64,000 nt of DNA from a bacterium (GCA_030680695.1 JAUXUT010000149.1:469768-533767), one strand, 5' to 3'. Positions 3,208 to 33,123 are shown, counted from the stretch's first letter. The notes: generated by a model not told the origin, from the letters alone. A program made the numbers and translations.

Positions 3208-3269
3208 TTTGAATGAGCCCTTTCTTTGCTTGGTTGAAGGTTGTTTAATTCACTATACATTATAGCACC

Positions 3270-4547
3270 TTACTGCCCGTCTGTCAAAAGAGCGGCGCGG
3301 GTATACCTGTTCCCTGCATTCCACAACAGCCATGAGTCGAGACCCGTATCATATGTGGCCTGAATCTGGGCTCGCACCATTTCGGCGGTGTATGGAACAG
3401 GATAGTTGTTATCCTGAAGCCATGGTCGCAATTTCTTGGGATCGAAAGATGGCTTGGCATACAGTGCAGGCGTCGAAGTGCCGATTCGGGCATCTGGAAA
3501 CACGACAGTGGTCGTCGTGGCGATTGTACGAGCCACAGCTTTGTCCATGGAAACCTTAATCACCTGATAAACATTCTTGTTGGGGTCGCCGAGATTATAA
3601 AAATTGTTCGGATAATGCGACGGGTATACCATTGGCGATATGTAGTCGAAATAAGGCAATGCATATTCGAGAACCTGACCGATGTTGAGGTCATCCGTAT
3701 TCGTAGTTGTCATGCCGAAAAGGTCGGCTGATATGACTATGCCTTCAGGCGAAAGTTTTTCGTGCAAGTACGAGAAAAATTCGCGCATGATTTCAGCCTT
3801 TGGGTTTGTGCCGCTCCATGGATACCAAATATCTTTCATGTTCCCGTCAGATGGGAATCGGATGTAGTCGAATTGAATCTCGTCGACACCTATTGCGTGT
3901 GTTTCGCGAGCAAGCATCACCATATAATCCCAATAAGGCTTAGCTGATGCATCGATCCAGGGAATACCCTTGTGGTCACGCCAGACAGTCGTGGTCGAGG
4001 TTTGGGTTTTTACCGCCCATTCCGGTTTTTCCTTGACCATGAATGTGTCCTGAAACACGGCGAGACGCGCAATGACATATATTCCCTTCGCGTGCAGTTC
4101 ATCGATAAAATCTTGCATGTCTTTTACGAAACATCCTCCACCCTCTGCAGGTTGGAGTATATCCGCGCCAGTATCAAACGTTATGCGGCCGTCATACGAC
4201 TTAACGTCAATGACGATTGTGTTTAGTTCTGTCTCGTCGACGAGCTTAACCAGATTGTCGCGCAAAGACTTCGAACCGGCGACGCAAGATGTCATGTATA
4301 TGCCACGGACGGCATCTGGCGTCGCCACATATGTAGCTTTACGGCCCTCTGGTTCCGACGCCTCGACAACATCAATCTGCGCGGCGCTTGATGTGCCCAT
4401 TCCATTCGCCTCATATCGCATATCAGAATGCGATGGTATTCCGATATAAAGCCCGACGAAAGCGAATACAAAGACAGTGACAAGGCCAGCGCCAGTGCGA
4501 TAAGCCTTGACGCTCTGTCTGTTCATCTTCGTCCCATCATCTGCCAT
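3270..4547 (-). CDS. putative glycoside hydrolase-like TIM-barrel protein (DUF4015 family), membrane anchored
   Basis: Motifs NTIVIDVKSYDG, GIYVIARLAVFQD, GVDEIQFDYIRFPSDG typical of DUF4015; N-terminal TM; start taken at MADDG ATG overlapping upstream stop (TAATG). Confidence 0.65.
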   Translation of the reverse strand: MADDGTKMNRQSVKAYRTGAGLVTVFVFAFVGLYIGIPSHSDMRYEANGMGTSSAAQIDVVEASEPEGRKATYVATPDAVRGIYMTSCVAGSKSLRDNLVKLVDETELNTIVIDVKSYDGRITFDTGADILQPAEGGGCFVKDMQDFIDELHAKGIYVIARLAVFQDTFMVKEKPEWAVKTQTSTTTVWRDHKGIPWIDASAKPYWDYMVMLARETHAIGVDEIQFDYIRFPSDGNMKDIWYPWSGTNPKAEIMREFFSYLHEKLSPEGIVISADLFGMTTTNTDDLNIGQVLEYALPYFDYISPMVYPSHYPNNFYNLGDPNKNVYQVIKVSMDKAVARTIATTTTVVFPDARIGTSTPALYAKPSFDPKKLRPWLQDNNYPVPYTAEMVRAQIQATYDTGLDSWLLWNAGNRYTRAALLTDGQ

Positions 4548-5426: not shown

Positions 5427-6614
5427 ATGACTATACGGCTCAGAAAACCCCTTGTCTATGTGACGCGGGACATCGAACGAGCACTCGGCCGCGAGCCGAA
5501 GGATGGTTATTTCGTTATATCAAACGACACACCTTACGGTCGCATGGTGCGCGAACGATATCCAGACAACGTTTGGCTCGTCGGACCAGATCCTTCGGGC
5601 GAGCAATTCGACACGTATGGCCTCCTTTCCCTTCCGTCGGTCGCGCAGGCCATACTCGAACGCGGTGCAGATGTGCTCGTGTTCCAGAACACAGCGCGCA
5701 TCGAACGCCTTGCGTCGGAACGAGGATGGAATCTTCTTAATCCGAGTGCGGCGCTCGCGAAAGAAATCGAAGAAAAGGTTTCGCAAATCGCCTGGCTCGA
5801 AAAAGATGCGGAACTCCTGCCACCACACCGCATCGCGAAAATGAAAGATGTGGTATTTGAAGGTAAACGATTCGTGCTTCAATTCAACCACTCGCATACT
5901 GGCGAAGGCACACATGTGATTGAGTCGGCTGATGCGCTGTCGGCGCTCGCTGTAAAGTTCCCGGAACGTGAATGTCGTGTCGTTGAATTCGTTGATGGCC
6001 CTGTGCTCACCGTGAATGTTGTTTCTGGATCCTGGCCGATTATCGGATCAATCAGCTATCAGATCACCGGCATAGCACCGTTCACTGACCTTCCCTTCTC
6101 GACTATCGGTAACGACTGGTCGCTCGCCGCATCGGCGGAATTTACAAATAAAGACCGTGCAACAATAAGGTCAATGGCGAGAAAAATTGGCCGACGCATG
6201 CATCGATCAGGATGGAAAGGTCTTTTCGGCATCGACGTTGTAAAAGATTCAACAACAGGCAAGATACACCTTCTTGAAATAAATGCTCGTCAACCCGCCT
6301 CTACCGCTTTCGAGTCACAGCTCCAGACGAAGACCACGATATTCGATGCCCATATCGCGGCACTGCTCGGTCGCTCGTGGAAAATCTGGCGCCTTTCCCC
6401 ATTGAAAGGCGGCTCGCAAATAGTTAAGCGCAAAACAGAAAAGACTCATACCGTTGATACCAAAGCGCTCGAATCCAAAGGTCTCGCCGTAATAAAATAT
6501 GAGGCCGGCCCACATAACAAAGAACTGTTCCGTATACAGTCAAATGAGGGTGTTATAGCAGGCCATGGTAGGCTTAATGCCCTAGGTAACTTCATAGCAT
6601 CATGCATCCGATAG
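5427..6614 (+). CDS. ATP-grasp superfamily ligase
   Basis: 395 aa; K-x-Gly-rich loop (KRFVLQFNHSHTGEGTHV), E-x-hydrophobic-x-G (RVVEFVDGPVL), GLFGIDVV...HLLEINARQ Mg/ATP motif. Confidence 0.6.
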   Translation: MTIRLRKPLVYVTRDIERALGREPKDGYFVISNDTPYGRMVRERYPDNVWLVGPDPSGEQFDTYGLLSLPSVAQAILERGADVLVFQNTARIERLASERGWNLLNPSAALAKEIEEKVSQIAWLEKDAELLPPHRIAKMKDVVFEGKRFVLQFNHSHTGEGTHVIESADALSALAVKFPERECRVVEFVDGPVLTVNVVSGSWPIIGSISYQITGIAPFTDLPFSTIGNDWSLAASAEFTNKDRATIRSMARKIGRRMHRSGWKGLFGIDVVKDSTTGKIHLLEINARQPASTAFESQLQTKTTIFDAHIAALLGRSWKIWRLSPLKGGSQIVKRKTEKTHTVDTKALESKGLAVIKYEAGPHNKELFRIQSNEGVIAGHGRLNALGNFIASCIR

Positions 6615-7396
6615 GAACAGAAGCATTGGGACCAGGAGCACGAACGGTTATAGACCGGTATCTTTCTCTGCCTATTGGTGCGAAACCATCGTGCCCATAT
6701 TTCAATAATCGACGCAGAAACTCGCGTGGCGGACTTCGTGCGCTCAAGGGAAAAGGCTCGCCAGAAGAAATAGCGGAAGAAGCAGAGATACGAGCACTCC
6801 AGACCCGCGTCGCCATCAAAGACTTGTCCACCGACAAACTTAAAGAGTTCCTTGTCGACCAGGATCTCGGCGTCGACTGCTCTGGTTTCGCATATCACGT
6901 ACTCGGAGCGGCACTTTTCGAAAAGAACGGCAAGTACCTCGGCCGCACCTTGCGATTCAAGCGTTCAGGATTCGCGGCGAGCCTCATCACTCGCCTCCGC
7001 CCAGCCGAAAATGCTGGCGTATCTGCATTCCGTCTCGACGAGAACAGCGTCGAAATTCCCGTCGCTGATGTACGGCCTGGTGATTTCATTACGTTCATAG
7101 GTACTGGCAAAGACAAATCGTATAACCATATCGTCGTCATCACTGGTGTAGATCGGGCAACTGGTGACAAAGAAGATGCGAGCGACATGCGTCTTTCATA
7201 CGCGCATTCATACGCGTGGCCGACAGACGGTGTTTATGGCCATGGTGTACGCGAGGGCGACATACTTGTTAAGGGCGGCGACCTTCTTGGTGGAACATGG
7301 AAGGAACGTGGTGCTGTTGGCAACGAAAACTTCACCTACACGAGTGCCTGTGACGCGCAAGAACTCACCCTCCGTCGCCTGCGGTCAATGATTTAG
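6602..7396 (+). CDS. papain-fold (NlpC/P60- or CHAP-type) cysteine peptidase-like protein, overlaps ATP-grasp gene by 13 nt
   Basis: VDCSGFAYHVLG nucleophile-Cys motif followed by NHIVVITG His motif; 264 aa. Confidence 0.45.
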   Translation: MHPIGTEALGPGARTVIDRYLSLPIGAKPSCPYFNNRRRNSRGGLRALKGKGSPEEIAEEAEIRALQTRVAIKDLSTDKLKEFLVDQDLGVDCSGFAYHVLGAALFEKNGKYLGRTLRFKRSGFAASLITRLRPAENAGVSAFRLDENSVEIPVADVRPGDFITFIGTGKDKSYNHIVVITGVDRATGDKEDASDMRLSYAHSYAWPTDGVYGHGVREGDILVKGGDLLGGTWKERGAVGNENFTYTSACDAQELTLRRLRSMI

Positions 7397-7460
7397 GACT
7401 AACCCGGACTGCGTGCATGTCGCTTTCCAAGAAACCTGTTTCGGCTATACTTGGTCGTAT

Positions 7461-8573
7461 ATGACCGATCTGAGCACGACCGTCGTAGGATACGCCATAC
7501 TTTCCTGCCTTGTGAGCCTCGCCTGGGCACCATTGCTCATAGGTACTTTGCGCCGCTTCAAGGTAACGCGTAACAACAAATACGACTTGGCGCTCGCCAT
7601 GGAATCGAACCATCACAAGGCGAACACCCCGATCATGGGCGGACTTCTCGTCATCGTAACTGTTGCCCTGCTCACGTACTTTTTCAACTGGGACCGCCGA
7701 TACACATGGGTGCCAATGGGTGTGATGTTGCTCTCTGCTCTGCTCGGTGGCACAGACGACCTTCTCAATGTATTCGGAAAGGAACGACGGCAACGAACCT
7801 TGTCACAGACAATGACGCTCATCCGTGTGCACAAGAGCATTTTTGTGCGAGCATGGCACCTCATAACTTTGCCGTGGACATGGCTTAAACGAGCGACGAC
7901 AATCTTTGGATCAAAGCAGAGGCGTGGCGTACTCGTACACGAGAAACTCATTCTGCAGTTCCTCGCAGGAGCCATCGCCGCATGGTGGATATATTGGAAG
8001 CTTGGCGCGTCATGGCAAGAACTCTATGTGCCGTTCATTGGTCTCGTCGACATTGGGATTCTCATCGTGCCACTCATCATATTAGTCGTGATGTTTACAG
8101 CGAACGCGGTGAACGTTTCTGACGGCATGGATGGATTGGCCGGCGGAATGCTTATTCCAACTTTCGGGGCATTGTCGTTCCTCGCGGCGCACGGCGGATA
8201 TTCCGAGCTTGCGATACTGAACGCTGTCACAGCAGGGTCACTCGTCGCATATACGTATTTCAATGTAAAACCTGCACGTTTCCAAATGGGCGATGTTGGG
8301 TCGCTCGGCCTTGGCGGATTACTCGCCATAAATGCCTTGGTGACGAATAGCATGGCGATTCTGCCTTTCATCGCCTTCGTGTTCTATGCAGAAGCGGCGA
8401 GCGTCATAATCCAAGCTGTCGGCCGCCACGTCTTTGGGCGCCGCGTATTTCGCATGGCGCCGCTTCATCATCATTTGGAATTGTCGGGTTGGAGCGAGGA
8501 AAAAACCATAATGCGCCTGTGGGTTATACATCTTGCGGCGGTGCTCGTTGGATTGTGGATAGGATTGCACTAA
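7461..8573 (+). CDS. mraY: phospho-N-acetylmuramoyl-pentapeptide transferase MraY
   Basis: MGGLLVIV, DDLLNVFGK, FTANAVNVSDGMDGLAGG, HHHLE motifs; start taken at MTDLS (track ORF from 7413). Confidence 0.85.
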   Translation: MTDLSTTVVGYAILSCLVSLAWAPLLIGTLRRFKVTRNNKYDLALAMESNHHKANTPIMGGLLVIVTVALLTYFFNWDRRYTWVPMGVMLLSALLGGTDDLLNVFGKERRQRTLSQTMTLIRVHKSIFVRAWHLITLPWTWLKRATTIFGSKQRRGVLVHEKLILQFLAGAIAAWWIYWKLGASWQELYVPFIGLVDIGILIVPLIILVVMFTANAVNVSDGMDGLAGGMLIPTFGALSFLAAHGGYSELAILNAVTAGSLVAYTYFNVKPARFQMGDVGSLGLGGLLAINALVTNSMAILPFIAFVFYAEAASVIIQAVGRHVFGRRVFRMAPLHHHLELSGWSEEKTIMRLWVIHLAAVLVGLWIGLH

Positions 8574-8574
8574 A

Positions 8575-9225
8575 ATGGCATACCTCAACTGGGACACAAA
8601 AGTTATAACGGACTTCTCGCCCGAAAACGTCGCCGCGATGTATGACGCCGGGTATGTCCTTACTCGCGTCGACAAAGGCGTCATGAACAAGACGCGATCA
8701 TATCGTGTAGACCTTTCGGCCTACGAGGCGTCGAGCGAAAACCGCCGCATCATGCGCAAATCAGAGCATATCGCCCTCCGCAGGGAATCTATTCCCTATA
8801 CCGCCTATGATTGGTCCATTGGAAAGCTCGCCAAAGATTTCTATGACAAGTTGGGCGCGGATTTTTCCGCAAACAAAGTAAAAGAAATTATGACCGAGAG
8901 CGAGAAAAGCAGTTTCAATACCCTGCTCGTCTTCACTGGGCCGCGGGGCGACGTCGGCTTTGTCGTTTGTTATGAGTCGCGCGACATACTTCATTATTCA
9001 TATCCGTTTTACGTCGAGGATCCAGCCGAACCATCGCGCGGACTCGGCATGATGACCAAAGCCGTCGAATGGGCCAAGGAAAACGGCAAGCGATACTTAT
9101 ATCTCGGCTCGCTCCAACGTCCATCGGATACATACAAATTACAGTTCCGTGGTGGTGAGTGGTTTGATGGTGAGAAGTGGCAGATTGATACCGAGCCCTT
9201 GAAAAACATTTTGAAAGGTATATAA
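8575..9225 (+). CDS. aminoacyl-tRNA-protein transferase-like protein (ATE_C/Bpt-like GNAT-fold domain)
   Basis: SYRVDLSAYEASSENRRIMRK and YLYLGSLQRPSDTYKLQFRGGEWFDGE resemble Bpt/ATE1 C-domain motifs (RVDv..F..SrsqRRvlrr; YvYLGYwi...YKarFrP.E); starts 1 nt after mraY stop. Confidence 0.5.
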   Translation: MAYLNWDTKVITDFSPENVAAMYDAGYVLTRVDKGVMNKTRSYRVDLSAYEASSENRRIMRKSEHIALRRESIPYTAYDWSIGKLAKDFYDKLGADFSANKVKEIMTESEKSSFNTLLVFTGPRGDVGFVVCYESRDILHYSYPFYVEDPAEPSRGLGMMTKAVEWAKENGKRYLYLGSLQRPSDTYKLQFRGGEWFDGEKWQIDTEPLKNILKGI

Positions 9226-9271: not shown

Positions 9272-9307
9272 AAAAAGCCGTCAGAATAAATCTCTGACGG
9301 CTTTTTG
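9272..9307. terminator. bidirectional intrinsic terminator
   Basis: aaaaagccgtcaga-ataaatc-tctgacggctttttg; overlaps last codons of the MazF-like ORF. Confidence 0.6.
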
Positions 9308-9667
9308 TATTGGCTCAAACCTCTCACGACCAATGAAACAGACGCGCTCGATAAGCCGCCTGGTGTCGATAACACGAATCTGAGAGAGTAAAGCAGAGGC
9401 CTCTTTGCCCTTTACAAGTCCAAGGGGAATCCGCATTGGATGTATCTTTACTGATGAGGTGAGCGGCAGAACGATGCACGTGGAACGACTTAAACCTTTT
9501 ACGATCAAAACTGGCCTGTTAAATCCCTCACCTGTACCGTCCTGCTCGAAACCTATGTTCACACCAAGGTGGCACCACCACACCTCTTGCGCGCGATAGA
9601 CAAGATGTCTGGCTTTGACATCAAGCTCTTTCTTGCATACATTCCATGTATCGAAATCCTTTCTCAC
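9281..9667 (-). CDS. PemK/MazF-family endoribonuclease toxin-like protein (GTG start)
   Basis: EVWWCHLGVNIGFEQDGTGEGFNRPVLIV and TCIVLPLTSS..P.RIPLG match MazF/PemK core motifs; no adjacent antitoxin ORF. Confidence 0.55.
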   Translation of the reverse strand: MRKDFDTWNVCKKELDVKARHLVYRAQEVWWCHLGVNIGFEQDGTGEGFNRPVLIVKGLSRSTCIVLPLTSSVKIHPMRIPLGLVKGKEASALLSQIRVIDTRRLIERVCFIGRERFEPIQKAVRDLF

Positions 9668-10180: not shown

Positions 10181-10202
10181 AACCCAAAGCATTATCTATA
10201 TA

Positions 10203-10231
10203 TTATACACCCAATAAACTCAAAAGTCAAT
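10203..10231 (-). promoter_or_regulatory. near-consensus sigma70-type promoter (TTGACT-N17-TATAAT) firing leftward, member of repeated promoter family
   Basis: revcomp reads GGTATTGACTtttgagtttattgggTGTATAATATA; same extended motif at 45025-45053, 14905-14932, 20078-20105. Confidence 0.45.
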
Positions 10232-10275: not shown

Positions 10276-11736
10276 ATGACAGCCTCCCTAAACCCATCTC
10301 AGAAGTCCCAAAAAGTCCACTTCATCGGCATTTGCGGCGTCGCAATGTCGGCCGTCGCTACAGCCCTGTGGCAGAAGGGATACAAGGTCACAGGGAGCGA
10401 CAGCGGCTTCTTCCCTCCTGTATCAACACACTTGTCGAATCTCGGCATCTCGTATTACCCTGGCTTCCATCCAGAAAAAATGATCGCGGCCCACGGTGAC
10501 GGACAAGAAAGTGGCGCGCCTGATTTCGTTGTGGTCGGCAACGCCATGGCAAGCAAAAATCCCGAAGTTGAATATGCACGCGAACACGGTATCGTCATCA
10601 AGTCATATCCCGAGGCCGTTGGTGAATTTTTGGTAAAGCCACACTCGATCGTCTGCACCGGCACATACGGAAAGACCACGACATCTGCCCTGCTCGCACA
10701 TATTTTGAAACATGCGAATCTGAAACCTTCGTATCTTATCGGCGGAGTGACGCAAGACGGATCGCCATCGGCCGCGATTGATTCGGGCGAATGGTCGGTG
10801 TGCGAGGGCGACGAGTACACCACAGCAAAATGGGACAAGCGCGCCAAGTTTATGCACTACAGGCCGACGCACCTTTTGATGACTGCAGTGAAATGGGATC
10901 ACGCCGATGTGTATCCGACCGAACAATCGTACTTTGACGCCTTTAAAGACCTCATCGCCCTTGTCCCAAAGTCTGACAATCCACACGACGGGCTTGTCCT
11001 CGCCTGCATAGATACCGAAACACTTCCTTCAATGCTTGCCGATGCGGGGCGCAATTATATTTCATACGGAAAAGACGAAAAAGCAGATTACCGATACGAG
11101 AACGTGCGCGAGAGCAAGGACGGCATATTGTTTGACATCGTCTATCATGGCAAAACGTACGGCATCGAATCCCCTCTCCTGGGTGCCTACAACGCAGAAA
11201 ATGTCACCGGATGTTTTGCTATGGCCAAGGAGATCGGCATCGCCCCGTCCGACATCACTGACGCCATCAAATCGTTCCGCGGTATGAAACGCCGTCTGGA
11301 AAAACGATACGAGAATCATGTGACGGTAATTGATGACATCGCCCACTCGCCAGAAAAAGCCAAGTCCGTGCTTAAAACATTGCGCGGAATATATCGCGGA
11401 ACGATCACCGCCGTATACGAGCCGAATTCCGGCAACCGCACACCACAATCTAAACCAGCCTACGCCGAGGCGTTTAAAGGTGCCGACCGCGTGGTCATCC
11501 CTCGCCTGTCGAAATTGAAGGTGGACGCCGCAAATCCCGAGAAAACATTTGAAGGAGACGAGCTCGCCGCAACCATCGCCCTCACCCATCCAAACGTCCA
11601 ATACATCGAAGACGATGCGGCCCTCGTTGAATCTGTCACCGCAAACTGCAAAGACGGCGATGTTATTGTTTTCCTCGGCTCGCATGGTTTTCGTGGGATG
11701 ATTGAAGAAACGGTCGAGAAGGTCGCAAGGTTATAA
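10276..11736 (+). CDS. Mur ligase family protein (UDP-N-acetylmuramate--L-alanine ligase MurC / murein peptide ligase Mpl-like)
   Basis: 486 aa; HFIGICGVAMSAVA...GSDSG N-terminus, TGTYGKTTTSALLAH P-loop, VIDDIAHSP. Confidence 0.8.
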   Translation: MTASLNPSQKSQKVHFIGICGVAMSAVATALWQKGYKVTGSDSGFFPPVSTHLSNLGISYYPGFHPEKMIAAHGDGQESGAPDFVVVGNAMASKNPEVEYAREHGIVIKSYPEAVGEFLVKPHSIVCTGTYGKTTTSALLAHILKHANLKPSYLIGGVTQDGSPSAAIDSGEWSVCEGDEYTTAKWDKRAKFMHYRPTHLLMTAVKWDHADVYPTEQSYFDAFKDLIALVPKSDNPHDGLVLACIDTETLPSMLADAGRNYISYGKDEKADYRYENVRESKDGILFDIVYHGKTYGIESPLLGAYNAENVTGCFAMAKEIGIAPSDITDAIKSFRGMKRRLEKRYENHVTVIDDIAHSPEKAKSVLKTLRGIYRGTITAVYEPNSGNRTPQSKPAYAEAFKGADRVVIPRLSKLKVDAANPEKTFEGDELAATIALTHPNVQYIEDDAALVESVTANCKDGDVIVFLGSHGFRGMIEETVEKVARL

Positions 11737-11747
11737 AGAAATTATAA

Positions 11748-11778
11748 AGAAAAGCCCCTCCGCGAGGAGGGGCTTTGA
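11748..11778. terminator. bidirectional intrinsic terminator
   Basis: aaagcccctcc-gcga-ggaggggcttt. Confidence 0.55.
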
Positions 11779-11820
11779 ACGAGCGCGCGAAGCGCTCGGT
11801 TAACTATTCGTCCTTTACCT

Positions 11821-12666
11821 TCATCCTTTCCAGTGGACGAAGACCAGATTCCTGGACTTGTCCCCGCGTCGGTGTGAATGCCAGGCGGGTGTGCCGTCGG
11901 GCAAACGGTCGGCGAAGGTGTCGTGCCGATCGCTCGAAACATGGGCCTTTGAGACTCCGAGATTTGAGAGCTGGGCCTCGACAACCCTGAAGACGTCCAT
12001 GCGCCCGAGCTCGAGCGGTCCAGGGAAACAGTGGAATCCCAGGACGTTCGAAACACGATGCACCATCTGCAGATTGCGACCCCCATGGGTCGGGTGGTCA
12101 AACCGATGCTCAAAGCTTTCGGGCCCGATACCCAAGGCGAGGAACGCCTGGATATGGGACCGATACTCCGACGTGGGGTGAAGATACCTGACCATGTTGC
12201 CAACCAATCCGCGCAGGAGCGAATCCCGCGAGGCGTGGCCGACAACTGCCTTGCGCACCCATGATGACCACAAAACGAGCGTCGGGCAATCGGCGCTCGC
12301 GATAGCGACCGCGGAACGAGGCCCGATGGCCACAGCATCCGCAGATACACCGTCACGCACGATGACTGACCCAAACTCACGAGCACCAAACCGATACGGG
12401 CTGGCGACAAGTCCGTTGCACTTGGAAACGCTCGGCAGGAAAAGTTCCCGCACACCGCGATCCGCCGCATAACTGACTGCAGCCAGCATGTTCTCGGCGG
12501 TAATTCCCTTCCAATCCCGTCCAGTGCCTTCGAGGCAAATCTGGAGCGAATCGTTCAGAGGAAACGGCGTAATGATAATGCTGTTTGTATTCACTGTGTC
12601 TCCCCGGCGACGGGGCGTTTGTCTTTCGACTTGTTTTGGTATGTTCATAAAAAACTCCTTGGTCAT
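11821..12666 (-). CDS. PgeF/YfiH-family (DUF152, laccase-domain) peptidoglycan editing factor-like protein
   Basis: AVAIASADCPTLVL (ADCvPvl), AVVGHASRDSLLRGL (aaHAGWRG-like), LGIGPESFE, WHSHRRGDKSRN (SyRRd..tGR) motifs; first ATG at 12666 (track ORF begins at TTG 12693); lies in ~65-70% GC block. Confidence 0.6.
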   Translation of the reverse strand: MTKEFFMNIPKQVERQTPRRRGDTVNTNSIIITPFPLNDSLQICLEGTGRDWKGITAENMLAAVSYAADRGVRELFLPSVSKCNGLVASPYRFGAREFGSVIVRDGVSADAVAIGPRSAVAIASADCPTLVLWSSWVRKAVVGHASRDSLLRGLVGNMVRYLHPTSEYRSHIQAFLALGIGPESFEHRFDHPTHGGRNLQMVHRVSNVLGFHCFPGPLELGRMDVFRVVEAQLSNLGVSKAHVSSDRHDTFADRLPDGTPAWHSHRRGDKSRNLVFVHWKG

Positions 12667-12731
12667 ATAACCACAGGAGCTTTCATAGGGCAAGGAAAAG
12701 GCTGGATTGAGAGATGGACTGGATCCGTGGT

Positions 12732-12896
12732 CTATTTACCCTCGTCCACGATTTCCGTCGTAACAACGCCATTATCAAGCGATCGAACCTCGAGCATGAT
12801 GCCGCAAGCCTGGCATTCAAGTACGTACCCAACCGCTATTTGCGGATGGACCGACACGTCGATGTCGTTTTTGCATTCAGGGCAGATGCATTTCAT
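12732..12896 (-). CDS. small zinc-ribbon protein (LysW-like CPEC...C..CG fold), 54 aa
   Basis: MKCICPECKNDIDVSVHPQIAVGYVLECQACGIMLEVRSLDNGVVTTEIVDEGK; pattern matches LysW carrier proteins; ATG at 12896. Confidence 0.4.
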   Translation of the reverse strand: MKCICPECKNDIDVSVHPQIAVGYVLECQACGIMLEVRSLDNGVVTTEIVDEGK

Positions 12897-12938
12897 AGGC
12901 TTTATATGATACCCGAAACGAGCTAAGATACAAATGCC

Positions 12939-13838
12939 ATGATCACGCCTCAAACTGAACACCCAGATATCGCTGCTGCCCTCGGCGTACCTCGTCTTTA
13001 CCTCAAACGAGAAGACTTGCACCCGTACGGCTCGCATAAAGGCCGATCCATACCGACCATGATTGATATCAAGGCGGCTGATGGCCGTAAGGAGTTTGCT
13101 ATATCATCGTCCGGCAACGCTGCACTCGCGGCAATCCGTCACATTGTCCACAAAAACAGCGGTCTCAAAGAAGAAGAAGATCGCCTCTCGCTCTCGATTA
13201 TTGTTGGTGAGCGTATAGACACCGACAAGGAGCAAATTCTGATTGTTGAGGCGAAAAACGCAGGCGAGACATCGGCCGGCCGCATATCTATATCGCAATC
13301 CCCTCGCCCCCTCAAAGCCCTCTTCGATCTCATTAAGGGCAATCGCCACGACAGCCTGCGCCAATCCGTTGATGACAACGCCCTCATCGGATACGAATCA
13401 CTTGCGGCCGAACTTGCTCGGACACCTGAACTTGCAGCTGTTTTCATACCGACGTCCTCGGGTACTGCGGCTCAGGCCATCGCAGAATTCTTTGTAGCGA
13501 ACAAAAAACCTTCGGCGGTGCACATCGTCCAAACAACATCCTGCCATCCAATTGTGAATGGTTTCGATCGTGCCGATTCATCAGAAACTTCGATGGCTGA
13601 TGCTATAGTCGACAAAGTTGCCTATCGTCGTGCCAAACTTGTTGAAGTTATAAAAAAGACCGCCGGATCGGGCTGGATTGCTACCAACACAGAAATCGCC
13701 CGTGCCCAAGACCTTTTACGAGCCTCAGGTGTCGAAACTACCGCGAACGGCGCATTGGGCCTCGCAGGACTTATCCGAGCCTGTGCCAAAGGTGCGACCT
13801 TCACCGGATCAGTAGTGTGCGTTATCACCGGCAAATAA
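12939..13838 (+). CDS. fold-type II PLP-dependent enzyme (tryptophan synthase beta superfamily; ACC-deaminase/D-cysteine desulfhydrase-like)
   Basis: LYLKREDLHPYGSHKGRS lysine motif near N-terminus, Gly-rich SSGNAALAAI, 299 aa. Confidence 0.6.
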   Translation: MITPQTEHPDIAAALGVPRLYLKREDLHPYGSHKGRSIPTMIDIKAADGRKEFAISSSGNAALAAIRHIVHKNSGLKEEEDRLSLSIIVGERIDTDKEQILIVEAKNAGETSAGRISISQSPRPLKALFDLIKGNRHDSLRQSVDDNALIGYESLAAELARTPELAAVFIPTSSGTAAQAIAEFFVANKKPSAVHIVQTTSCHPIVNGFDRADSSETSMADAIVDKVAYRRAKLVEVIKKTAGSGWIATNTEIARAQDLLRASGVETTANGALGLAGLIRACAKGATFTGSVVCVITGK

Positions 13839-13878
13839 GGGCTAGACAAAGACTAGACAAAGGTCGAAATGGACAAGC

Positions 13879-13907
13879 AAAAAGCCCCTCCGAAAAGGGG
13901 CTTTTGA
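13879..13907. terminator. bidirectional intrinsic terminator
   Basis: aaaagcccctccgaaaaggggcttttg. Confidence 0.55.
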
Positions 13908-14248
13908 AATTTTTGCGAATGCCTACTAGGCGGCGCGGCGCGTGATAAGAGCAATTGATGGCATACGGCGCGGCGCGGGCGCCGGGCCTCCGTGATGGGA
14001 CTTGGGCGGTGTGCCTGGGATTTTTTCCGCCAATTGAACCTCGGGCGGGATATGCCGATGCGCCTCGCGGCGATCTGCGGGGTTTCCAAGATCGGGACCA
14101 CTCATCTGACCGTTCCATTTACGGTGCATAGCTGTAGGGTACTCTGATGGCGACGATCATTCGTCATAAGCGGTGGGAGTGCTGCCCCATGCCTACTTGT
14201 GCCATTTGAATATATATTGCTCCGCGTTATGAAAAAAGTCAAAGTAAA

Positions 14249-14283
14249 AACAAATAAAAAGGAGGCCCTCCATAGGGCCTCCT
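14249..14283 (-). terminator. intrinsic terminator for minus-strand gene 14297-14812
   Basis: plus aaataaaaa-ggaggccct-ccat-agggcctcc. Confidence 0.5.
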
Positions 14284-14296
14284 GATAACTTGTTGT

Positions 14297-14812
14297 TCAG
14301 CTCGCGCGCGACTTGGAGGCCTGGGCCTCGTCCATCGCTTGGCCGAGCTGCGCCATCGGGTCCGACGCCTTCGAACGCTGGGCCGGGAACGGCACCATCG
14401 ATCCGATCTTCGGCGTGCGGCGCGGTTTCGGGGTCTGGCCGTGCGTCGCCTTCACCGGGATTTTCGGTTGGATATTCACGGACTTGGCCTCGTCGTATTC
14501 GGCGAGGGCCTTGTCCCACGAGGCCAACGAGCACCAGCGGAATGCCTGGGCCATCTTCTCGCCCGGGCGCTGACCCGCGACGAACGCCACCAGCAACTCG
14601 CTGGTCGGGAGTCTGGGATTTTCCAGGCTCTCGAACACCGGTCGGCCAGTGTTGGCGTTGGGGTCGAACACTGCACGGCAGGCATCTTGGACACGGAAGT
14701 AAACCCGGTCCCCATGCTCGCTGGCGATCGTTCCGGTGCCATGTCGTTGGTCGACCATGACAACCAGTCCAAACTCCACCCGTGCCGATACTTGGGATTT
14801 CTTTGATTTCAT
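14297..14812 (-). CDS. cold-shock-domain-like protein with basic disordered C-terminal tail
   Basis: GLVVMVDQRHGTGTIASEHGDRVYFRVQDA resembles CSD core (GxVKWFN..KGFGFI...DVFVH); chosen over overlapping frames in high-GC region; own promoter and terminator. Confidence 0.4.
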   Translation of the reverse strand: MKSKKSQVSARVEFGLVVMVDQRHGTGTIASEHGDRVYFRVQDACRAVFDPNANTGRPVFESLENPRLPTSELLVAFVAGQRPGEKMAQAFRWCSLASWDKALAEYDEAKSVNIQPKIPVKATHGQTPKPRRTPKIGSMVPFPAQRSKASDPMAQLGQAMDEAQASKSRAS

Positions 14813-14904
14813 GAGGTAAGGAGCAACAATACAATGATGAGCGACTGAGTAACCCAGTCTTAAGGAATCGGCCCCTAGGCCTCTCCCATAGCTCTTTACC
14901 CTCT

Positions 14905-14932
14905 ATTATAGCATATTAGACAGAAAAGTCAA
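14905..14932 (-). promoter_or_regulatory. near-consensus promoter TTGACT-N16-TATAAT for the CSD-like gene
   Basis: revcomp GGTATTGAGGCTATTGACTtttctgtctaatatgcTATAATAGAGGG. Confidence 0.45.
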
Positions 14933-15003: not shown

Positions 15004-16416
15004 CTAGAGCGTTTCTACAAGCAACATGTTCGTTTCTGTCGACTTGCCGAAAGGCAGGGCCGAAGCCATGACCACCCTGTCCCCTTTCTTGGCGAGTTTG
15101 CCTTTGAGGAAGTGCTCACGGACCATCTGGGCCACCTGATTGAAGTCCGTCGTCTTGTGGACAAGAACCGGCGTCGTGCCCCAGGAGAGGATAGACTGCC
15201 TGAAAGTCACTTCGTTAGGGGTAAAGACGAAGATTGGCTGTGTCGGCCTGTGGCGGGACATGAGGCGAGCCGAGCGGCCAGACTGGGTGAACGATACAAG
15301 ATATTTGGCACCTGTCCTGTCTGCATTTTTAACCGCGGAAAGTGTCACCGATTCACCAGTTGCAAGTGATGCGCCTGGGGCGATATCAAGGAGTTGTTTT
15401 TTGACGTGGGTCAATTCGATCTGGGCCGCGACGCTCGACATGACTTTGACTGCCTCGACTGGGAAATCACCAAGAGTAGTTTCTTCCGAAAGCATAACTG
15501 CATCGGTGCCGTCGATGATGGCATTTGCAACGTCAGATACTTCGGCGCGAGTAGGAACCGGCGCCTTGATCATAGATTCAAGCATCTGAGTCGCCGTGAT
15601 GACCGGTAGACCTCGCTCGTTACATTTCCTGATGAGCATCTTCTGGGCCGCAGGGACTTTCTCGGCAGGAATTTCAATGGCAAGGTCACCTCGGGCAACC
15701 ATCACGCCGTCAACAAGGTCGAGAATGTCATCGATATGAGTAAGAGCCTGTGGAGTTTCAATCTTGGCGATTATTCGGGCCTTAGACTTTTTTGCATTCA
15801 AAATATCGCGGAGCTCCTTGATGTCTTCCGGGCGTCGCACGAATGACAGCGCATAGAAGTCCACCTTGTTCTTGATACCGAACTCGAGATCTACGCGGTC
15901 CTTTTCTGTAAGAGCCGAAATAGAAAGATCAGAATCTGGAAGGTTCACGCCGCGCTTGCCTTTTATCTCGCCGCCGATGATGACCTTACAAATGACGTCT
16001 TTGCCTTTCACGTCGAGCACTTCAAGTTTCTTGCGTCCGTCGTGGAGGAACACGATGTGGCCCTTCTTCACTTCTTTTGCGAAGTTTGGGTAATTAACCG
16101 AAACACAGGTCTCGTCGCCCTCGATTTTCTCGGTCGTAATCGTGAACTTGGCGCCTTCTTTAAGCATTACAGAGTCAGTTTTGAAGGTACCGATGCGGAT
16201 TTTCGGTCCAGCAAGGTCCTGCAAAGTCGCCGCGGGAATACCGGTTTTCGCGGTCGCCTTCTTGAGATTGTCCACCCTGCCCTGATGTTCTTTGAAATCT
16301 CCGTGCGAGAAGTTAAGGCGCATGACATTCATGCCAGCCTTCAGGAGTTCGGTGAGTTTTGCTTCGGATTCGGTAGCGGGGCCTATGGTGCAGACGATCT
16401 TGGTTTTCTTGGTCAT
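15004..16416 (-). CDS. pyk: pyruvate kinase
   Basis: 470 aa; MTKKTKIVCTIGPATESE...MNVMRLNFSHGD...MVARGDLAIEIP canonical PK motifs. Confidence 0.9.
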   Translation of the reverse strand: MTKKTKIVCTIGPATESEAKLTELLKAGMNVMRLNFSHGDFKEHQGRVDNLKKATAKTGIPAATLQDLAGPKIRIGTFKTDSVMLKEGAKFTITTEKIEGDETCVSVNYPNFAKEVKKGHIVFLHDGRKKLEVLDVKGKDVICKVIIGGEIKGKRGVNLPDSDLSISALTEKDRVDLEFGIKNKVDFYALSFVRRPEDIKELRDILNAKKSKARIIAKIETPQALTHIDDILDLVDGVMVARGDLAIEIPAEKVPAAQKMLIRKCNERGLPVITATQMLESMIKAPVPTRAEVSDVANAIIDGTDAVMLSEETTLGDFPVEAVKVMSSVAAQIELTHVKKQLLDIAPGASLATGESVTLSAVKNADRTGAKYLVSFTQSGRSARLMSRHRPTQPIFVFTPNEVTFRQSILSWGTTPVLVHKTTDFNQVAQMVREHFLKGKLAKKGDRVVMASALPFGKSTETNMLLVETL

Positions 16417-17947: not shown

Positions 17948-17975
17948 ATTATATCAAATTGACAGGATTTGTCAA
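17948..17975 (-). promoter_or_regulatory. consensus sigma70 promoter TTGACA-N16-TATAAT
   Basis: revcomp CATACTTGACAaatcctgtcaatttgaTATAATtagatacaaATG. Confidence 0.5.
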
Positions 17976-18034: not shown

Positions 18035-18175
18035 GAGGCCATATCGCATTCTATTTTGCCTCGTTCTTTTCGCCAGTTCTTCCCTGGCTTCCATGCAATT
18101 TAAGGTGTTTGCAAAACCCATATTAAATATGATCGACTCCGTAAGTTCCCTACCGAAGTAGGAGAACGGTTTTCA

Positions 18176-19680
<1,505 letters not shown>

Positions 19681-20077
19681 AACCGAGAAGATAGTCACTG
19701 CGCCGAAGCGCCGAGACTTTCCCCTCGATCGAACGAGACAAAACAGACCGCGATATGTTGCCACATCGTTTTCTATCTTGTTGGACTTCCCGTGCTTTCG
19801 GGTCGTCGCAATCCTATTTATTTTTAGTTGGGGTCGAAACTGAATCTGAATCAACCTTGCAACATTCAACAAAAACTCAAAGTAAAATAGATTAAGATTT
19901 TGCACGAGTTAAGAGAAACATCAGAAATAAATCTGACCAGTTTTTGCTAACACGTTCTTAAGTATTACTTCTATTTCAACGATCGGCCCCTAAAGCCCTC
20001 TGTCCTGAGAAAGAAAAATGGTCATCTTGCGAAGCCCATTTCCCTGCCCAAAACCGAGTTTTAAAGGGGTAAGGACT

Positions 20078-20105
20078 ATTATACACATCGGTTGAGGCTG
20101 GTCAA
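20078..20105 (-). promoter_or_regulatory. candidate 16S rRNA promoter TTGACC-N16-TATAAT
   Basis: revcomp GGGCTTGACCagcctcaaccgatgtgTATAATAG, ~390 nt upstream of 16S 5' end, same family as other promoters. Confidence 0.4.
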
Positions 20106-20639
20106 GCCCTTTAGTGCTCTGTTATATGGGGGCCCGGTCACAGGTCAGACGCTCGCCTTGGCAGTGTTTTTATGTGCTGTGGGCAGAAGCATACCACGCT
20201 TGAACTATTCGATGCCATCCTGGATAACCTTGAAAATATGAGGAAATGGAACAATGAGATGGCTATATTCATGGCTCAGGCCCGAAAGGAACCCATAATG
20301 CGCGTATTGCTGTAGGGTGTTAGTATTGCAGCATGGCAAAGAAAGACAACTTTACGGATGTGGTCCAGAATCTCCCAAAGACGCCACCTGCTCCGGCTCC
20401 AAAGCAGCCAGCACCACAGCAGGTTTCAGGGTCTAACGGTGAGGTGATCACGCTCGGACACAATCAGAAAAAATAGGCGAAATTGCGTCTTTTGCAGACT
20501 CCGAATGACTCCGAAAAAATGGGGGTATCGGAGTTTTGCTTTATATAGGGGAGATGGCTTGAACTATATGTGATATGGGATATGGACCTCTTTAATCAAA
20601 AATAGATTCGGAGTGTTTTTAAATTGACTCAAATTGGTT

Positions 20640-20705
20640 GAAATAGAGCGAAATAGAGCGAATTAGAGTGAAAATTTGGGTGATTTAGGGCGAAATAGGG
20701 TGACC
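20640..20705 (+). repeat. short tandem direct repeats GAAATAGAGCG x2 plus degenerate copies (GAATTAGAGTG, GCGAAATAGGGTG)
   Basis: gaaatagagcgaaatagagcgaattagagtgaaaatttgggtgatttagggcgaaatagggtga at left edge of low-GC island. Confidence 0.4.
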
Positions 20706-20744
20706 TAAACGAGCTATTTAGCAGTTTCTATCGGAAATGATAGA

Positions 20745-21188
20745 ATGGTGTTTATGTCTTGGATAAGAGAAGTAAAGACGCATTTTCTGTTCCAGCTTCC
20801 AATTACACTCATAATCGGGATGCTTGCTTTTGGATTTATCTGTACGGGCATGTTCCACTCAGATATGCAAATGGAAAGTGTAAATCCATCTGTAGTTTTG
20901 GCGACCATGGAAAATGGCCAGTCCTGTTGTGGTATAGACATGTCACAACATATTGAATCTTGGAAGCTATTTTCAACTTCGATACCGCAAAGCTCTTCGA
21001 GTATTCTAATTCTTGTGGTCCTAAGTCTTGCTCTCGTCACTTTGTTAAGAAACAAAGTCAATCATCTTCTGCCTGATCGCACAGCTCTATCCTATAGAAC
21101 AATTTTTAGACTTAGCCAGAACCTTTTTTCCATAAATCATCTCGAACTCGCTTTTGCTAGAGGTGTTCTCAATACGAAAGTATATTAA
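20745..21188 (+). CDS. hypothetical membrane protein
   Basis: 147 aa ORF with two hydrophobic helices, first gene of island. Confidence 0.3.
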   Translation: MVFMSWIREVKTHFLFQLPITLIIGMLAFGFICTGMFHSDMQMESVNPSVVLATMENGQSCCGIDMSQHIESWKLFSTSIPQSSSSILILVVLSLALVTLLRNKVNHLLPDRTALSYRTIFRLSQNLFSINHLELAFARGVLNTKVY

Positions 21189-21242
21189 TTGGTTTAGATA
21201 GGACGGTTTGCGTTCTTTTACTTATCTATTTTCCAATTAAAA

Positions 21243-21974
21243 ATGTCTGAACATAAAACAAATCCTCTTTCGATTCCCGCGGCGATTATAATCGCAGGTG
21301 GGCTGATCGGCCTGGGAATATTCTTCGGTTCAAAAAATATAAGTTTGCCCAATGCCGCAGTAACCGCGCCAGCTCCTCAGATTGCAGATGCTCGGTCAAC
21401 AGAAAGTCTCGACAAAATGAGGCCCGTAACAAAAGACGATCATATTCGCGGTATTTTAAATGCACCCGTGAAGATAGTCGAGTACTCGGATACTGAATGT
21501 CCCTTCTGTAAGAGATTCCATTTAACAATGAAGCAAGTAATGGATGAATATGGAGCGAACGGAAAAGTCGCATGGGTCTATCGTCATTTTCCTCTCGATC
21601 AGCTCCATTCAAAAGCGAGAAAGGAGTCTGTGGCTCTTGAATGTGCTGCCGAACAAGGTGGAAACGACAAATTCTGGGCATATGCAGATCGTCTTTATGA
21701 GATCACTCCAGCAAATGATGGCCTCGATTTAGCCGAACTTCCAAAGATAGCGAAGTTCGTGGGATTGGACACGACCAAATTTAATGAGTGTCTTTCGAGC
21801 GGAAAATATGACAAGCATATTGAAGATGATGTCCAAAATGCAGTTGCAACAGGCGGTCGAGGCACCCCTTGGAGCATAGTCGTGGGGGCGCAGGGTAAAG
21901 TATATCCGCTTTCTGGAGCGCAGCCGTATGCCGCTATAAAGCAACTCATAGAGCAGGCATTGCAAAGCAAATAG
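21243..21974 (+). CDS. DsbA-family thiol:disulfide oxidoreductase (thioredoxin fold, CPFC active site), membrane anchored
   Basis: N-terminal TM, VEYSDTECPFCKRFH active-site motif, 243 aa. Confidence 0.8.
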   Translation: MSEHKTNPLSIPAAIIIAGGLIGLGIFFGSKNISLPNAAVTAPAPQIADARSTESLDKMRPVTKDDHIRGILNAPVKIVEYSDTECPFCKRFHLTMKQVMDEYGANGKVAWVYRHFPLDQLHSKARKESVALECAAEQGGNDKFWAYADRLYEITPANDGLDLAELPKIAKFVGLDTTKFNECLSSGKYDKHIEDDVQNAVATGGRGTPWSIVVGAQGKVYPLSGAQPYAAIKQLIEQALQSK

Positions 21975-21978
21975 TACA

Positions 21979-22503
21979 ATGTCGGCACTAAAGATATTCA
22001 GGAACTGGCGATATGCAATTACTTCCATCGTCATAGCGATCACGGTCTTTGCTCTTGCGACCTGGCTGCCAAATTTCCGCCTGCTATCTTTGGTCCTGTC
22101 TGATCCGCTTCTCAGTTTAGGGGAGAAGATATCTTTGCCCGTTAAACTCTTAGCCTCTATAGGTACGAATTTCACAGTCCTGTCAGCAACCTACACAATC
22201 CTCATAGCGATCATACTAGGCATTAATGCTTCTCTGGCTCTTTATCTCGTTCGCAAACGAGTCAGGGCACTCGGAGGATTAAGTATCGGGCTTGTGGGTA
22301 TTACCACTGGCGTCCTAGGAATCGGCTGTGCCGCCTGTGGATCAATTCTTGCCACAACCATTCTGGGAACGATCGGCGGAGCTTCGATCCTTTCGATTCT
22401 GCCTCTGCAAGGAAGCGAATTCGGTATCTTTGGCGTCCTGCTCTCTCTATCTTCGACATATCTTCTAATGAAGCACATTAATAAACCATTAGTCTGTAAA
22501 TAA
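21979..22503 (+). CDS. polytopic membrane protein with intramembrane CAAC (CxxC) motif; possible redox partner (DsbB/VKOR-like role) of adjacent DsbA
   Basis: 174 aa, 4-5 TM, GIGCAACGSILATT. Confidence 0.4.
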   Translation: MSALKIFRNWRYAITSIVIAITVFALATWLPNFRLLSLVLSDPLLSLGEKISLPVKLLASIGTNFTVLSATYTILIAIILGINASLALYLVRKRVRALGGLSIGLVGITTGVLGIGCAACGSILATTILGTIGGASILSILPLQGSEFGIFGVLLSLSSTYLLMKHINKPLVCK

Positions 22504-22518
22504 AATGAAAAAAATAAA

Positions 22519-22935
22519 ATGAAAAACGGAATTATTATCACAGTAATCTCGGCATTGATCCTTGTTGGAGGTGCCTGGTGGGTGACAGCACCCTCAAAAG
22601 ATCCGAACGTAATTACAAAAAAAGGTATTCATTGGCACCCGGAATTGGAAATTTATGTTAAAGGAGAAAAGATAGAGATACCTCAAGGTATTGGTCTTTC
22701 GGGCACGGTTCATAATCCATTGCATACACATGAGGATCTACCCATCATTCATCTTGAGTATGGTGGGAAAGTGACAAAAGATGATACTAAAGTAACGAAC
22801 TTTTTCAGGGTCTGGGGTAAGAGCTTTGGGGAATTCGGGAATAACGTCACAATGAGCGTAAATGGAGTTGAAAATATGGAACTTGAGAACTACCAGATGA
22901 AAGACAAAGACAAGGTCGTGCTGAGATATGAGTAA
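22519..22935 (+). CDS. secreted/anchored His-rich hypothetical protein (possible metal-binding)
   Basis: N-terminal signal anchor; HWHPELE, HNPLHTHEDLP His clusters. Confidence 0.4.
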   Translation: MKNGIIITVISALILVGGAWWVTAPSKDPNVITKKGIHWHPELEIYVKGEKIEIPQGIGLSGTVHNPLHTHEDLPIIHLEYGGKVTKDDTKVTNFFRVWGKSFGEFGNNVTMSVNGVENMELENYQMKDKDKVVLRYE

Positions 22936-22962
22936 TTATTGTATATCTGCGCGCCTGGACAC

Positions 22963-22981
22963 TATACCCCTATAGGGTATA
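22963..22981. promoter_or_regulatory. CsoR-type operator palindrome
   Basis: TATACCCC-TAT-AGGGTATA 11 nt upstream of csoR start, resembles known CsoR operators (ATACCC..GGGTAT). Confidence 0.5.
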
Positions 22982-22991
22982 TGATTACCCC

Positions 22992-23261: not shown

Positions 23262-23264
23262 TCT

Positions 23265-26973: not shown

Positions 26974-26987
26974 CATCAACATAAAGT

Positions 26988-27401: not shown

Positions 27402-27419
27402 TTTTAACTTTTACACGTT

Positions 27420-28355: not shown

Positions 28356-28357
28356 AC

Positions 28358-29098: not shown

Positions 29099-29100
29099 CT

Positions 29101-31047: not shown

Positions 31048-31059
31048 TTAATATAAAAA

Positions 31060-32328: not shown

Positions 32329-32329
32329 A

Positions 32330-33019: not shown

Positions 33020-33123
33020 TCCACGAGAACTCTCGTGGACTGATAGCGGTTTTGGAGCTATCATGTTCAATGACAATAGAATATAAAAGTAGCCTAAACT
33101 AGACATTGTCTGGCATGGCGAAA

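Follow-up and report, generated by a model that had tools for sequence, protein, structure and literature searches.

We examined a 64,000-nucleotide stretch of bacterial DNA (GCA_030680695.1 JAUXUT010000149.1:469768-533767; hereafter the window, 48.8% GC) from a metagenome-assembled genome of the Patescibacteria (the candidate phyla radiation, CPR), and in particular its GC-rich block at 11740-14830, which an initial annotation had described as a segment acquired from a high-GC donor. Judged by gene order and homology, the block appears to be a Paceibacterota neighbourhood that has been inherited vertically and adjoins a cluster of genes for cell-wall precursors, rather than a foreign island of 3 kb. 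The real GC anomaly is a single gene of ~0.5 kb, an open reading frame (ORF) of 171 amino acids (aa), plus a spacer core of 62% GC at 13920-14130. We lean towards the reading that this is a native cell-wall neighbourhood in which the 171-aa ORF allele is most likely a replacement from a higher-GC member of the same clade. The evidence comes from composition, synteny, family distribution, predicted folds and codon-usage fit, and from these we infer the recombination event, its donor and all of the biochemical functions discussed below.

Genes of the four kinds named in the initial annotation are all present in the block:

11821..12648, minus strand: divergent PgeF/YfiH-like protein (DUF152, Cu-oxidase_4); PF02578 at 35.8 bits against a gathering threshold of 22.9; GC 58.6%, GC at third codon positions (GC3) 0.65, z(GC3) +1.9.
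12732..12893, minus strand: LysW-like four-cysteine zinc-ribbon protein, 53 aa; PF21344 at 33 bits against a gathering threshold of 27; GC 50.6%, GC3 0.59, z(GC3) +0.9.
12939..13838, plus strand: fold-type II pyridoxal-phosphate (PLP) enzyme, 299 aa, whose gene forms a divergent pair with the LysW-like one; GC 52.4%, GC3 0.50, z(GC3) -0.7.
14297..14812, minus strand: the 171-aa ORF (NCBI Q8L64_06045), with a predicted N-terminal cold-shock-domain (CSD)-like oligonucleotide/oligosaccharide-binding (OB) fold, a helix and a basic disordered tail; GC 63.4%, GC3 0.79, z(GC3) +4.3.

The z-scores are taken against the 33 window genes outside the low-GC island (mean GC3 0.54, standard deviation 0.06); over all 48 window genes the mean is 0.51 and the standard deviation 0.07. 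The flanking genes murC (52.6% GC overall) and pyk have GC3 values of 0.60 and 0.61. The block is indeed the most GC-rich of its size, ranking first among 610 sliding 3.09-kb segments, but its GC content is 55.5% and not the ~65-70% first proposed. When 500-bp segments are considered, at least 60% GC is reached at two spots in the 64 kb, ~11750-12500 and ~14150-14850 (60-66%), with which a finer profile agrees, and these correspond to the 3' part of the PgeF-like gene and to the 171-aa ORF. A hand count of 42 G or C in the 60 nucleotides at 14401-14460 proved exact on recount, while the supposed density of GCGCG runs is not borne out, GCGC counts showing no enrichment. Both the PgeF-like gene and the 171-aa ORF exceed the GC range of the window. 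A foreign-like composition can be upheld for the 171-aa ORF, with its z-score of ~4 and non-host codons; it does not extend to the LysW-like and PLP genes, which are host-like in GC3, nor to the PgeF-like gene, whose codon usage is best fitted by its own genome. Atypical composition is therefore not a property of the whole block, as only the 171-aa ORF is non-host in codon usage. The PLP enzyme is of fold type II as described, although threonine dehydratase (IlvA/TdcB), threonine synthase and racemases (Asp/Ser) are closer to it than the ACC deaminase or TrpB that had been suggested.

The same four genes are found in the context of two flanking genes that are themselves conserved:

10276..11736, plus strand: murC (UDP-N-acetylmuramate--L-alanine ligase), left flank; three Mur ligase Pfam domains, TIGR01082 at 283.8 bits.
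15004..16416, minus strand: pyruvate kinase gene (pyk), right flank; PF00224 and PF02887, 79-84% identical in relatives.

A scan with MurC, using one genome per species, returned 15 Paceibacterota-type loci (here given L numbers) in which MurC is 48-75% identical; those at 70-75% identity bear the label Candidatus Paceibacterota or Parcubacteria. In all 14 loci that extend past murC, the LysW-like gene (minus strand) and then the PLP gene (plus strand) come directly downstream of it, and the pair also stands beside murC in six further loci reached through other proteins (L021, L022, L024-26 and L027), giving 20 of 20. In L022, the closest relative sampled (PLP enzyme 76% and LysW-like protein 87% identical), the order and orientation match those of the window: PgeF-like gene, LysW-like gene, PLP gene, a 137-aa CSD-like ORF and pyk. 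The PgeF-like and CSD-like genes also recur at this locus. In L005 and L022 orthologues of the former separate murC from the LysW-like gene (37% identity and E 5e-39 in L022), and of the two distant relatives of the protein that were found, the one in L028 is flanked by two Mur ligase genes on a contig with a Patescibacteria-type neighbourhood. Over 1600 homologues of the PLP enzyme were found; of the best 120, every one that bears a name belongs to Patescibacteria or Paceibacterota.

The proposal that a high-GC donor, plausibly the actinobacterial host on which an episymbiont lives, supplied the whole 3-kb block in a single acquisition can now be weighed, and we consider it highly improbable. 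It would account for this being the GC-richest 3 kb of the window, for two genes lying above the window's GC range and for the non-host codons of the 171-aa ORF. It is contradicted by the host-like GC3 and the 20 of 20 murC-linked occurrences of the LysW-like and PLP genes, by the PgeF-like gene, whose codons fit the host and whose orthologues lie beside Mur ligases on other Patescibacteria-type contigs, and by the Patescibacteria affiliation of the named PLP homologues. The closest homologues do not point to Actinobacteria, and those relatives of the variable genes whose contigs were read are on Patescibacteria-type contigs too. The best non-self identity for the PgeF-like protein and the 171-aa ORF is 36-43%, and searches of 5.8 and 15 billion proteins found no homologue in any lineage close enough for a recent transfer. 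Nor are the genes missing from the syntenic locus of relatives. No mobility signature was seen: the borders of the block have no significant flanking repeats, integrase or tRNA, and the nearest recombinase is ~19 kb away at 33963-35615. We likewise considered, and rejected, phages or mobile elements as the source of this 171-aa family, there being no relatives on IMG/VR viral contigs, no PHROG match and no flanking repeats. All four proteins thus fall in the lineage of the flanking genes, while similarity to the flanks in GC3 holds for two of them and is borderline for a third. A "high-GC island" linked to an actinobacterial host would have been a false lead on CPR lifestyle, and the practical value of this part of the result is mainly negative.

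The 171-aa ORF therefore needs an explanation of its own. ORF calling is ambiguous here, as first noted, with six overlapping ORFs of at least 86 aa on both strands at 14193-14834; the ambiguity is resolved because the pattern of GC by codon position, the homologues and the fold prediction all favour the 171-aa frame. That 14297-14812 is non-coding, a structured RNA or a decayed fragment in which the ORF is a by-product of stop scarcity in GC-rich DNA, would be in keeping with the overlapping frames, with the lack of a Shine-Dalgarno sequence ahead of the ATG, and with the lack of any Pfam, NCBIfam or PHROG match to the protein. We find it scarcely credible, since GC3 > GC1 > GC2 (0.79/0.62/0.49) is shown by this minus-strand frame alone among the overlapping ones, protein-level homologues are found at E 6e-17 to 1e-5, and there is no Rfam match. 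The ORF has transcription signals of its own, and a 5' untranslated region of ~85 nucleotides:

14905..14932, minus strand: near-consensus sigma-70 promoter of the 171-aa ORF, TTGACT-16-TATAAT with an extended TG, 11 of 12 consensus positions.
14260..14283, minus strand: intrinsic terminator serving the 171-aa ORF, with TTTTTATTTGT after its 10-bp stem, 13 nucleotides past the stop codon.

The terminators and consensus promoter that had been taken to delimit the block do exist, but they are ordinary per-gene signals and not island borders. Matches to TTGACW-N15-18-TATAAT number five in the window against 0.03 expected by chance; all of these perfect promoters are on the minus strand (3259-3287, 10202-10230, 14905-14932, 17948-17975 and 45025-45053).

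Relatives of the 171-aa ORF are few, and they occupy the same place. Four (37-43% identity) were found among 1.84 billion representative proteins, three of them in the same neighbourhood, and a family hidden Markov model adds a homologue in the same slot of L015 (E 6e-8), and more weakly suggests one each in L022 and L004 (E 0.009 and 0.03). In six relatives the slot near the PLP gene, beside pyk where pyk is present, holds a homologue. The relatives in L018, L021 and L024-27 are on contigs with Patescibacteria-type gene neighbourhoods, of which three arrangements are:

L021: DUF7847, orf176, 81-aa ORF, 399-aa ORF, PLP enzyme, LysW-like, murC.
L024-26: orf185, 127-aa ORF, PLP enzyme, LysW-like, murC.
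L027: DUF7847, pyk, orf178, 277-aa ORF, truD, PLP enzyme, LysW-like, murC.

A tiny, very fast-evolving cold-shock-like family thus holds a conserved but variable slot, and in the window it does so with non-host codon usage.

This codon usage is what singles the gene out. The 171-aa ORF fits the codon table of the clade's sister genomes of 55-58% GC (-1.063 nats per codon) better than that of the window (-1.192), and the resulting log-likelihood ratio is +21.0 nats; when 5000 sequences were simulated from the ORF's amino-acid composition and host codon usage the ratio was -33 +/- 9, and 0 of 5000 reached +21.0. All other window genes tested gave a negative ratio, leaving the 171-aa ORF as the sole positive. 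The contrast with the sister table is needed to see this, as per-codon likelihood under the window's own flat table alone does not flag the ORF. Proline is encoded by CCG at 11 of 13 positions (Fisher p = 2e-5 against core genes), alanine by GCC/GCG, and CTG is used as often as CTC; the host ribosomal protein genes rpL10 and rpL7/L12 favour CCA, GCA, CTC and AAG. The bias of the 171-aa ORF is not the host's translational-selection pattern.

When the related loci are compared, candidate sources of such a gene can be recognized. GC content in the clade runs from 36.6% in L010 and 39% in L024, through ~43% in L006, L013 and L007 and ~49-50% in the window, to 55-58% in L002-L005 and L015 and 65.9% in L022 (Logan SRR17386206, 3215 bp), in which every gene has a GC3 of 0.89-0.94. 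The sisters with MurC at 73-75% identity are at 55-58% GC. The spread includes higher-GC relatives, and therefore higher-GC donors exist among close relatives of the host. We note separately that loci with 48-75% MurC identity span 36.6-58% GC, which is very wide for one clade.

Sequence identities within the segment are also discordant. The 171-aa ORF is 27% identical to the slot protein of L022 where the PLP enzymes are 76% identical, and 40-41% identical to the proteins of L021 and L024 where the PLP enzymes are 49-54% identical. These mismatches point to recombination in the segment that runs from the LysW-like gene to the CSD-like gene. A further mismatch is seen between L021 and L027, in which the PLP enzymes are 83%, the LysW-like proteins 80% and MurC 56% identical, and suggests that lineages have exchanged the segment lying downstream of murC.

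The scheme that we favour has three components. Throughout the clade the LysW-like and PLP genes keep a fixed, divergent arrangement next to murC. The space that separates the PLP gene from pyk is a variable slot, usually holding the gene of a fast-evolving small CSD-like protein, here with its own strong promoter and terminator. Into this conserved slot an allele from a higher-GC relative would have recombined, replacing the resident 171-aa ORF allele, and it would not yet have ameliorated towards the host's composition.

Several points weigh against an import. The homologue's GC3 is above that of its neighbours in all five mid- and low-GC genomes (0.79 vs 0.50-0.61 in the window, 0.70 vs 0.53 in L021, 0.70 vs 0.46 in L027, 0.47 vs 0.29 in L024 and 0.38 vs 0.21-0.35 in L018), and one family-intrinsic cause is simpler than five separate imports. 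No high-GC donor with a close allele was sampled, the best match being 43% identical, and the leucine usage of the ORF (CTG = CTC) is unlike the sisters' strong CTC preference. The codon comparison draws its reference from 64 kb of the host genome and has 163 informative codons in the 171-aa ORF, and the functions of all four proteins are read from fold and family.

The first of these points also speaks for a native 171-aa ORF whose GC-richness is intrinsic to the family, through GC-biased gene conversion at a recombination hot spot or through selection, either on the mRNA or on the codons of a very highly expressed small nucleic-acid-binding protein. We regard this as a serious rival, if the less likely one. 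It would agree with the GC3-richness of variable genes nearby (0.74 for the 277-aa gene of L027 and 0.67 for the 399-aa gene of L021), with the near-consensus promoter and dedicated terminator, and with the above-average GC3 of the host L10 and L7/L12 genes themselves (0.61-0.66). Its difficulty is that the codons of the ORF are unlike those of the host ribosomal protein genes (CCG vs CCA, GCC/GCG vs GCA, CTG vs CTC) and look like a blanket shift towards G- and C-ending codons; expression-linked codon bias was downgraded for this reason. In addition, the tree of the 171-aa family is discordant with that of the PLP enzyme, and in higher-GC relatives the slot gene has a GC3 at or below that of its neighbours (0.65 vs 0.79-0.82 in L015, 0.70 vs 0.73-0.78 in L004), so the offset is not always upward. 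We also considered the gene at 33963-35615 (550 aa, GC3 0.67) as a highly expressed chaperonin that might share the codon shift, and rejected it as Pfam identifies it as a large serine recombinase.

An artefact of assembly was considered as well, in which reads from a co-occurring high-GC relative (such as L022, at 66% GC) were joined at the conserved PLP and pyk flanks. High-GC relatives with identical gene order exist, and the NCBI and Logan (SRR13727517) assemblies may not come from independent samples. Even so, we think a chimera very unlikely: the GC-rich stretch is exactly one coding sequence, surrounded by an AT-rich, host-like promoter, untranslated region and terminator, the two assemblers agree on an identical sequence across the region (L001), and a GC3 of 0.79 is well under the 0.93 of L022. 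The GC spread of the clade carries a more general message. This Paceibacterota clade has core proteins 50-75% identical and GC contents of 37-66%, so that a gene of outlying composition can have a close relative as its source, and inferring a host from GC content is unsafe.

The second GC-rich element lies in the interval between the PLP gene and the 171-aa ORF, which contains:

13880..13905, either strand: terminator hairpin 3' of the PLP gene, usable on both strands, from a terminator scan; 82% conserved in L023.
13906..14259: 354-bp spacer with a 62% GC core at ~13920-14130, containing the NCBI 67-aa hypothetical ORF Q8L64_06040.

Q8L64_06040 (13926-14129, minus strand) is a singleton. On its strand it is preceded by a weak promoter-like site (TTGACT) and followed by a hairpin (13899..13885), and the spacer contains imperfect GGCGCGGCGCG repeats. 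The spacer has no homology in any related locus and no Rfam match, shows no coding GC pattern in any frame, and its fold z-scores of -0.57 and -0.47 indicate no excess folding energy. A structured RNA in the spacer or in the ORF was rejected on this basis, as Rfam searches at gathering and E-value thresholds gave nothing meaningful and fold z was ~ -0.5. Many relatives carry, between the PLP gene and pyk, a conserved gene of ~400 aa whose product has the motif H..PHGDE in its N-terminal part and matches neither a Pfam nor an NCBIfam family:

L002, 12670-13812: ~400-aa H..PHGDE gene.
L005, 5048-6160: the same gene.
L006, 12691-13905: the same gene.
L013, 10096-11253: the same gene.
L014, 1861-3018: the same gene.
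L021, 6969-8168: the same gene.

The interval at 13839-14296 was examined as a remnant of this gene and the idea was rejected, with no significant tblastn, tblastx or blastn match and no frame-specific GC. The spacer may have come in together with the 171-aa ORF, or may be the remains of a decayed sequence.

The two invariant members of the block deserve attention in their own right. The LysW-like gene is unannotated in this genome by both NCBI and Logan, the latter calling over it an opposite-strand ORF of 70 aa instead (12714-12926, plus strand), and its exact protein sequence is absent from the collection of 15 billion proteins. The proteins are 53-54 aa long. In all 16 sequences the cysteines of CPECKN...EC..CG are invariant and the C-terminus is E[IV]VDEGK, with lysine as the last residue. 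Weak matches in the PDB are to 5K2M and 3WWL, and the NCBIfam cut-offs are not reached (17.8 vs 53.2 for TIGR01206, 23.5 vs 75 for NF041070). Among the window genes scanned we recognized no lysX, lysZ, lysY, lysJ or lysK, and no kinase, reductase or aminotransferase partner. The PLP enzyme for its part could not be placed in a specific characterised fold-II subfamily, and a literature search for LysW-like proteins with threonine-synthase-like enzymes, or in Patescibacteria, found nothing relevant.

The pair is fixed beside murC and near mraY, an ATP-grasp ligase gene and an ATE_C/Fem-like transferase gene, and this constant pairing of a ribbon with a racemase- or dehydratase-like PLP enzyme amid cell-wall genes suggests that the two share a function. 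A bolder proposal, which we put forward as improbable, is that they constitute a new carrier- or adaptor-dependent amino-acid-modifying step in Paceibacterota peptidoglycan precursor synthesis, providing or tethering, for instance, a non-canonical or D-amino acid that goes into the stem peptide or cross-bridge, and that, independently of this, the PLP-pyk interval is a recombination hot spot at which CSD-like alleles are exchanged across GC-divergent lineages. A conserved and routinely missed 53-aa LysW-like protein together with its PLP enzyme is a cheap lead on the poorly understood cell-wall chemistry of the CPR.

The PgeF-like gene is divergent. The NCBI call gives a protein of 275 aa, and the open frame extends to 12693. 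Against the NCBIfam equivalog TIGR00726 it scores 28.5 bits with a cut-off of 141. A profile built from five sequences of the family matches the YfiH structures 1RW0, 1Z9T and 6DZD at E ~4e-4, while phmmer with the single protein against the PDB gave no match. The motifs D-C-P and H-A-x-R are invariant in the family alignment, and in alignment with E. coli PgeF the residues D120-C121-P122 and H138 are matched to D106/C107 and H124. No invariant histidine was found upstream of the cysteine in the family, and the region of H71 is not alignable. In E. coli PgeF the triad H71-C107-H124 is needed to edit the products of MurC mis-ligation (PMC12280929). Between this gene and murC, which are convergent, lies one further signal:

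11751..11776, either strand: bidirectional terminator hairpin between the murC and PgeF-like genes, an 11-bp stem followed by a T-run.

This hairpin and the one at 13880-13905 have the 13-nucleotide arm AAAAGCCCCTCCG in common.

The cell-wall cluster to which the block appears attached extends upstream of murC. The local gene order is ATP-grasp, 264-aa ORF, mraY, ATE_C-like, (PemK), rlmH, murC, PgeF-like, LysW-like, PLP enzyme, CSD-like ORF and pyk, of which the part comprising ATP-grasp, the 264-aa ORF, mraY, ATE_C-like, rlmH and murC is conserved in related loci too. At 5427-9225 the window has the conserved ATP-grasp gene, the 264-aa ORF of no recognised family, mraY and a gene for a 216-aa protein. 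The ATP-grasp gene (5427-6614) gives weak matches to biotin-carboxylase-like and archaeal Ddl-like models, not to LysX or RimK. The 216-aa protein resembles the C-terminal domain of arginyl-tRNA-protein transferase and is possibly Fem-like. This cluster may be involved in cross-bridge or stem-peptide chemistry. A PemK-family toxin gene (9281-9667, minus strand) sits between the ATE_C-like gene and rlmH; its counterpart (28% identity) is seen in L005 only, and PemK genes also occur near the L018 homologue of the 171-aa ORF.

Elsewhere in the window, a low-GC (43-46%) run of metal-handling genes at ~19900-35650, all on the plus strand, is a better candidate for an island than 11740-14830. It encodes a Cu/heavy-metal P-type ATPase and HMA, DsbD-like, DsbA-like, ZIP, YibE/F and ferric-reductase-like proteins, and is followed by a LOOT RNA (33091-33205) and then by the large serine recombinase gene at 33963-35615 (GC3 0.67), which abuts tRNA-Leu at 35566-35648. 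The rRNA genes are unlinked, with the 16S gene ~25.7 kb from the 23S and 5S genes and the metal island and other genes between them; rRNA-related features are at 18175-19680, 45147-45254, 45390-48709 and 45794-46098, and a group I intron lies inside the 23S gene.

When these findings are set against known systems, the 171-aa ORF shares with lateral transfer and allelic replacement a single gene of unlike GC content and codon usage, a variable slot between conserved flanks and a discordant phylogeny. It departs from them in that mobility genes and repeats are absent, the family is confined to its own clade and to the same locus, and other genomes show an atypical composition in the orthologous slot as well. 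Its protein has the predicted CSD/OB fold, and is presumably nucleic-acid-binding. It differs from cold-shock-domain proteins (CspA, Lin28, Unr; PF00313) in lacking a sequence-level match in any family member: no Pfam match to PF00313 was found at E up to 1 for the 171-aa ORF, for P0002-P0005 or for the positional homologues. G-x-G-x-I and V-x-F skeletons are the sole remnants of the CSD motifs; RNP1 and RNP2 are not recognizable in sequence, and the RNP aromatics are not conserved. To the fold the family adds a further helix and a disordered, basic tail of ~60 aa that carries the motif HG.K.KPRR.PKV, and its members are 27-44% identical between genomes whose PLP enzyme or MurC is 50-76% identical.

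With LysW and ArgW the window's zinc-ribbon protein shares its small size, a globular four-cysteine zinc-ribbon domain that scores above the Pfam gathering threshold, and an acidic C-terminal segment. In genuine LysW, LysX, an ATP-grasp enzyme, loads the substrate onto a C-terminal glutamate (PMC12998189), whereas the window protein ends in lysine, its constant partner is a fold-II PLP enzyme beside murC, and the ATP-grasp gene of the cluster is not LysX-like. By sequence comparison the LysW fold appears to have been kept while the features that define the carrier fail.

The PgeF-like protein differs from PgeF/YfiH in its equivalog score, far under the cut-off, and in the 31-37% identity of its nearest relatives. 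It has VRDG where QVHG is usual, no conserved histidine at the place expected for H71, additional invariant histidines in F.H.FDHP.HG and an N-terminal extension of ~70 aa. What it shares with that family is a Pfam domain above the gathering threshold, the D-C-P and H-A-x-R motifs and a C-terminal WHSHRR...GRNLVFV similar to the family C-terminus. The gene also adjoins murC, whose product is the source of the mis-ligation products that PgeF removes (PMC12280929). By analogy, the position of PgeF-like genes beside Mur ligases would fit the known role of PgeF in removing these products.

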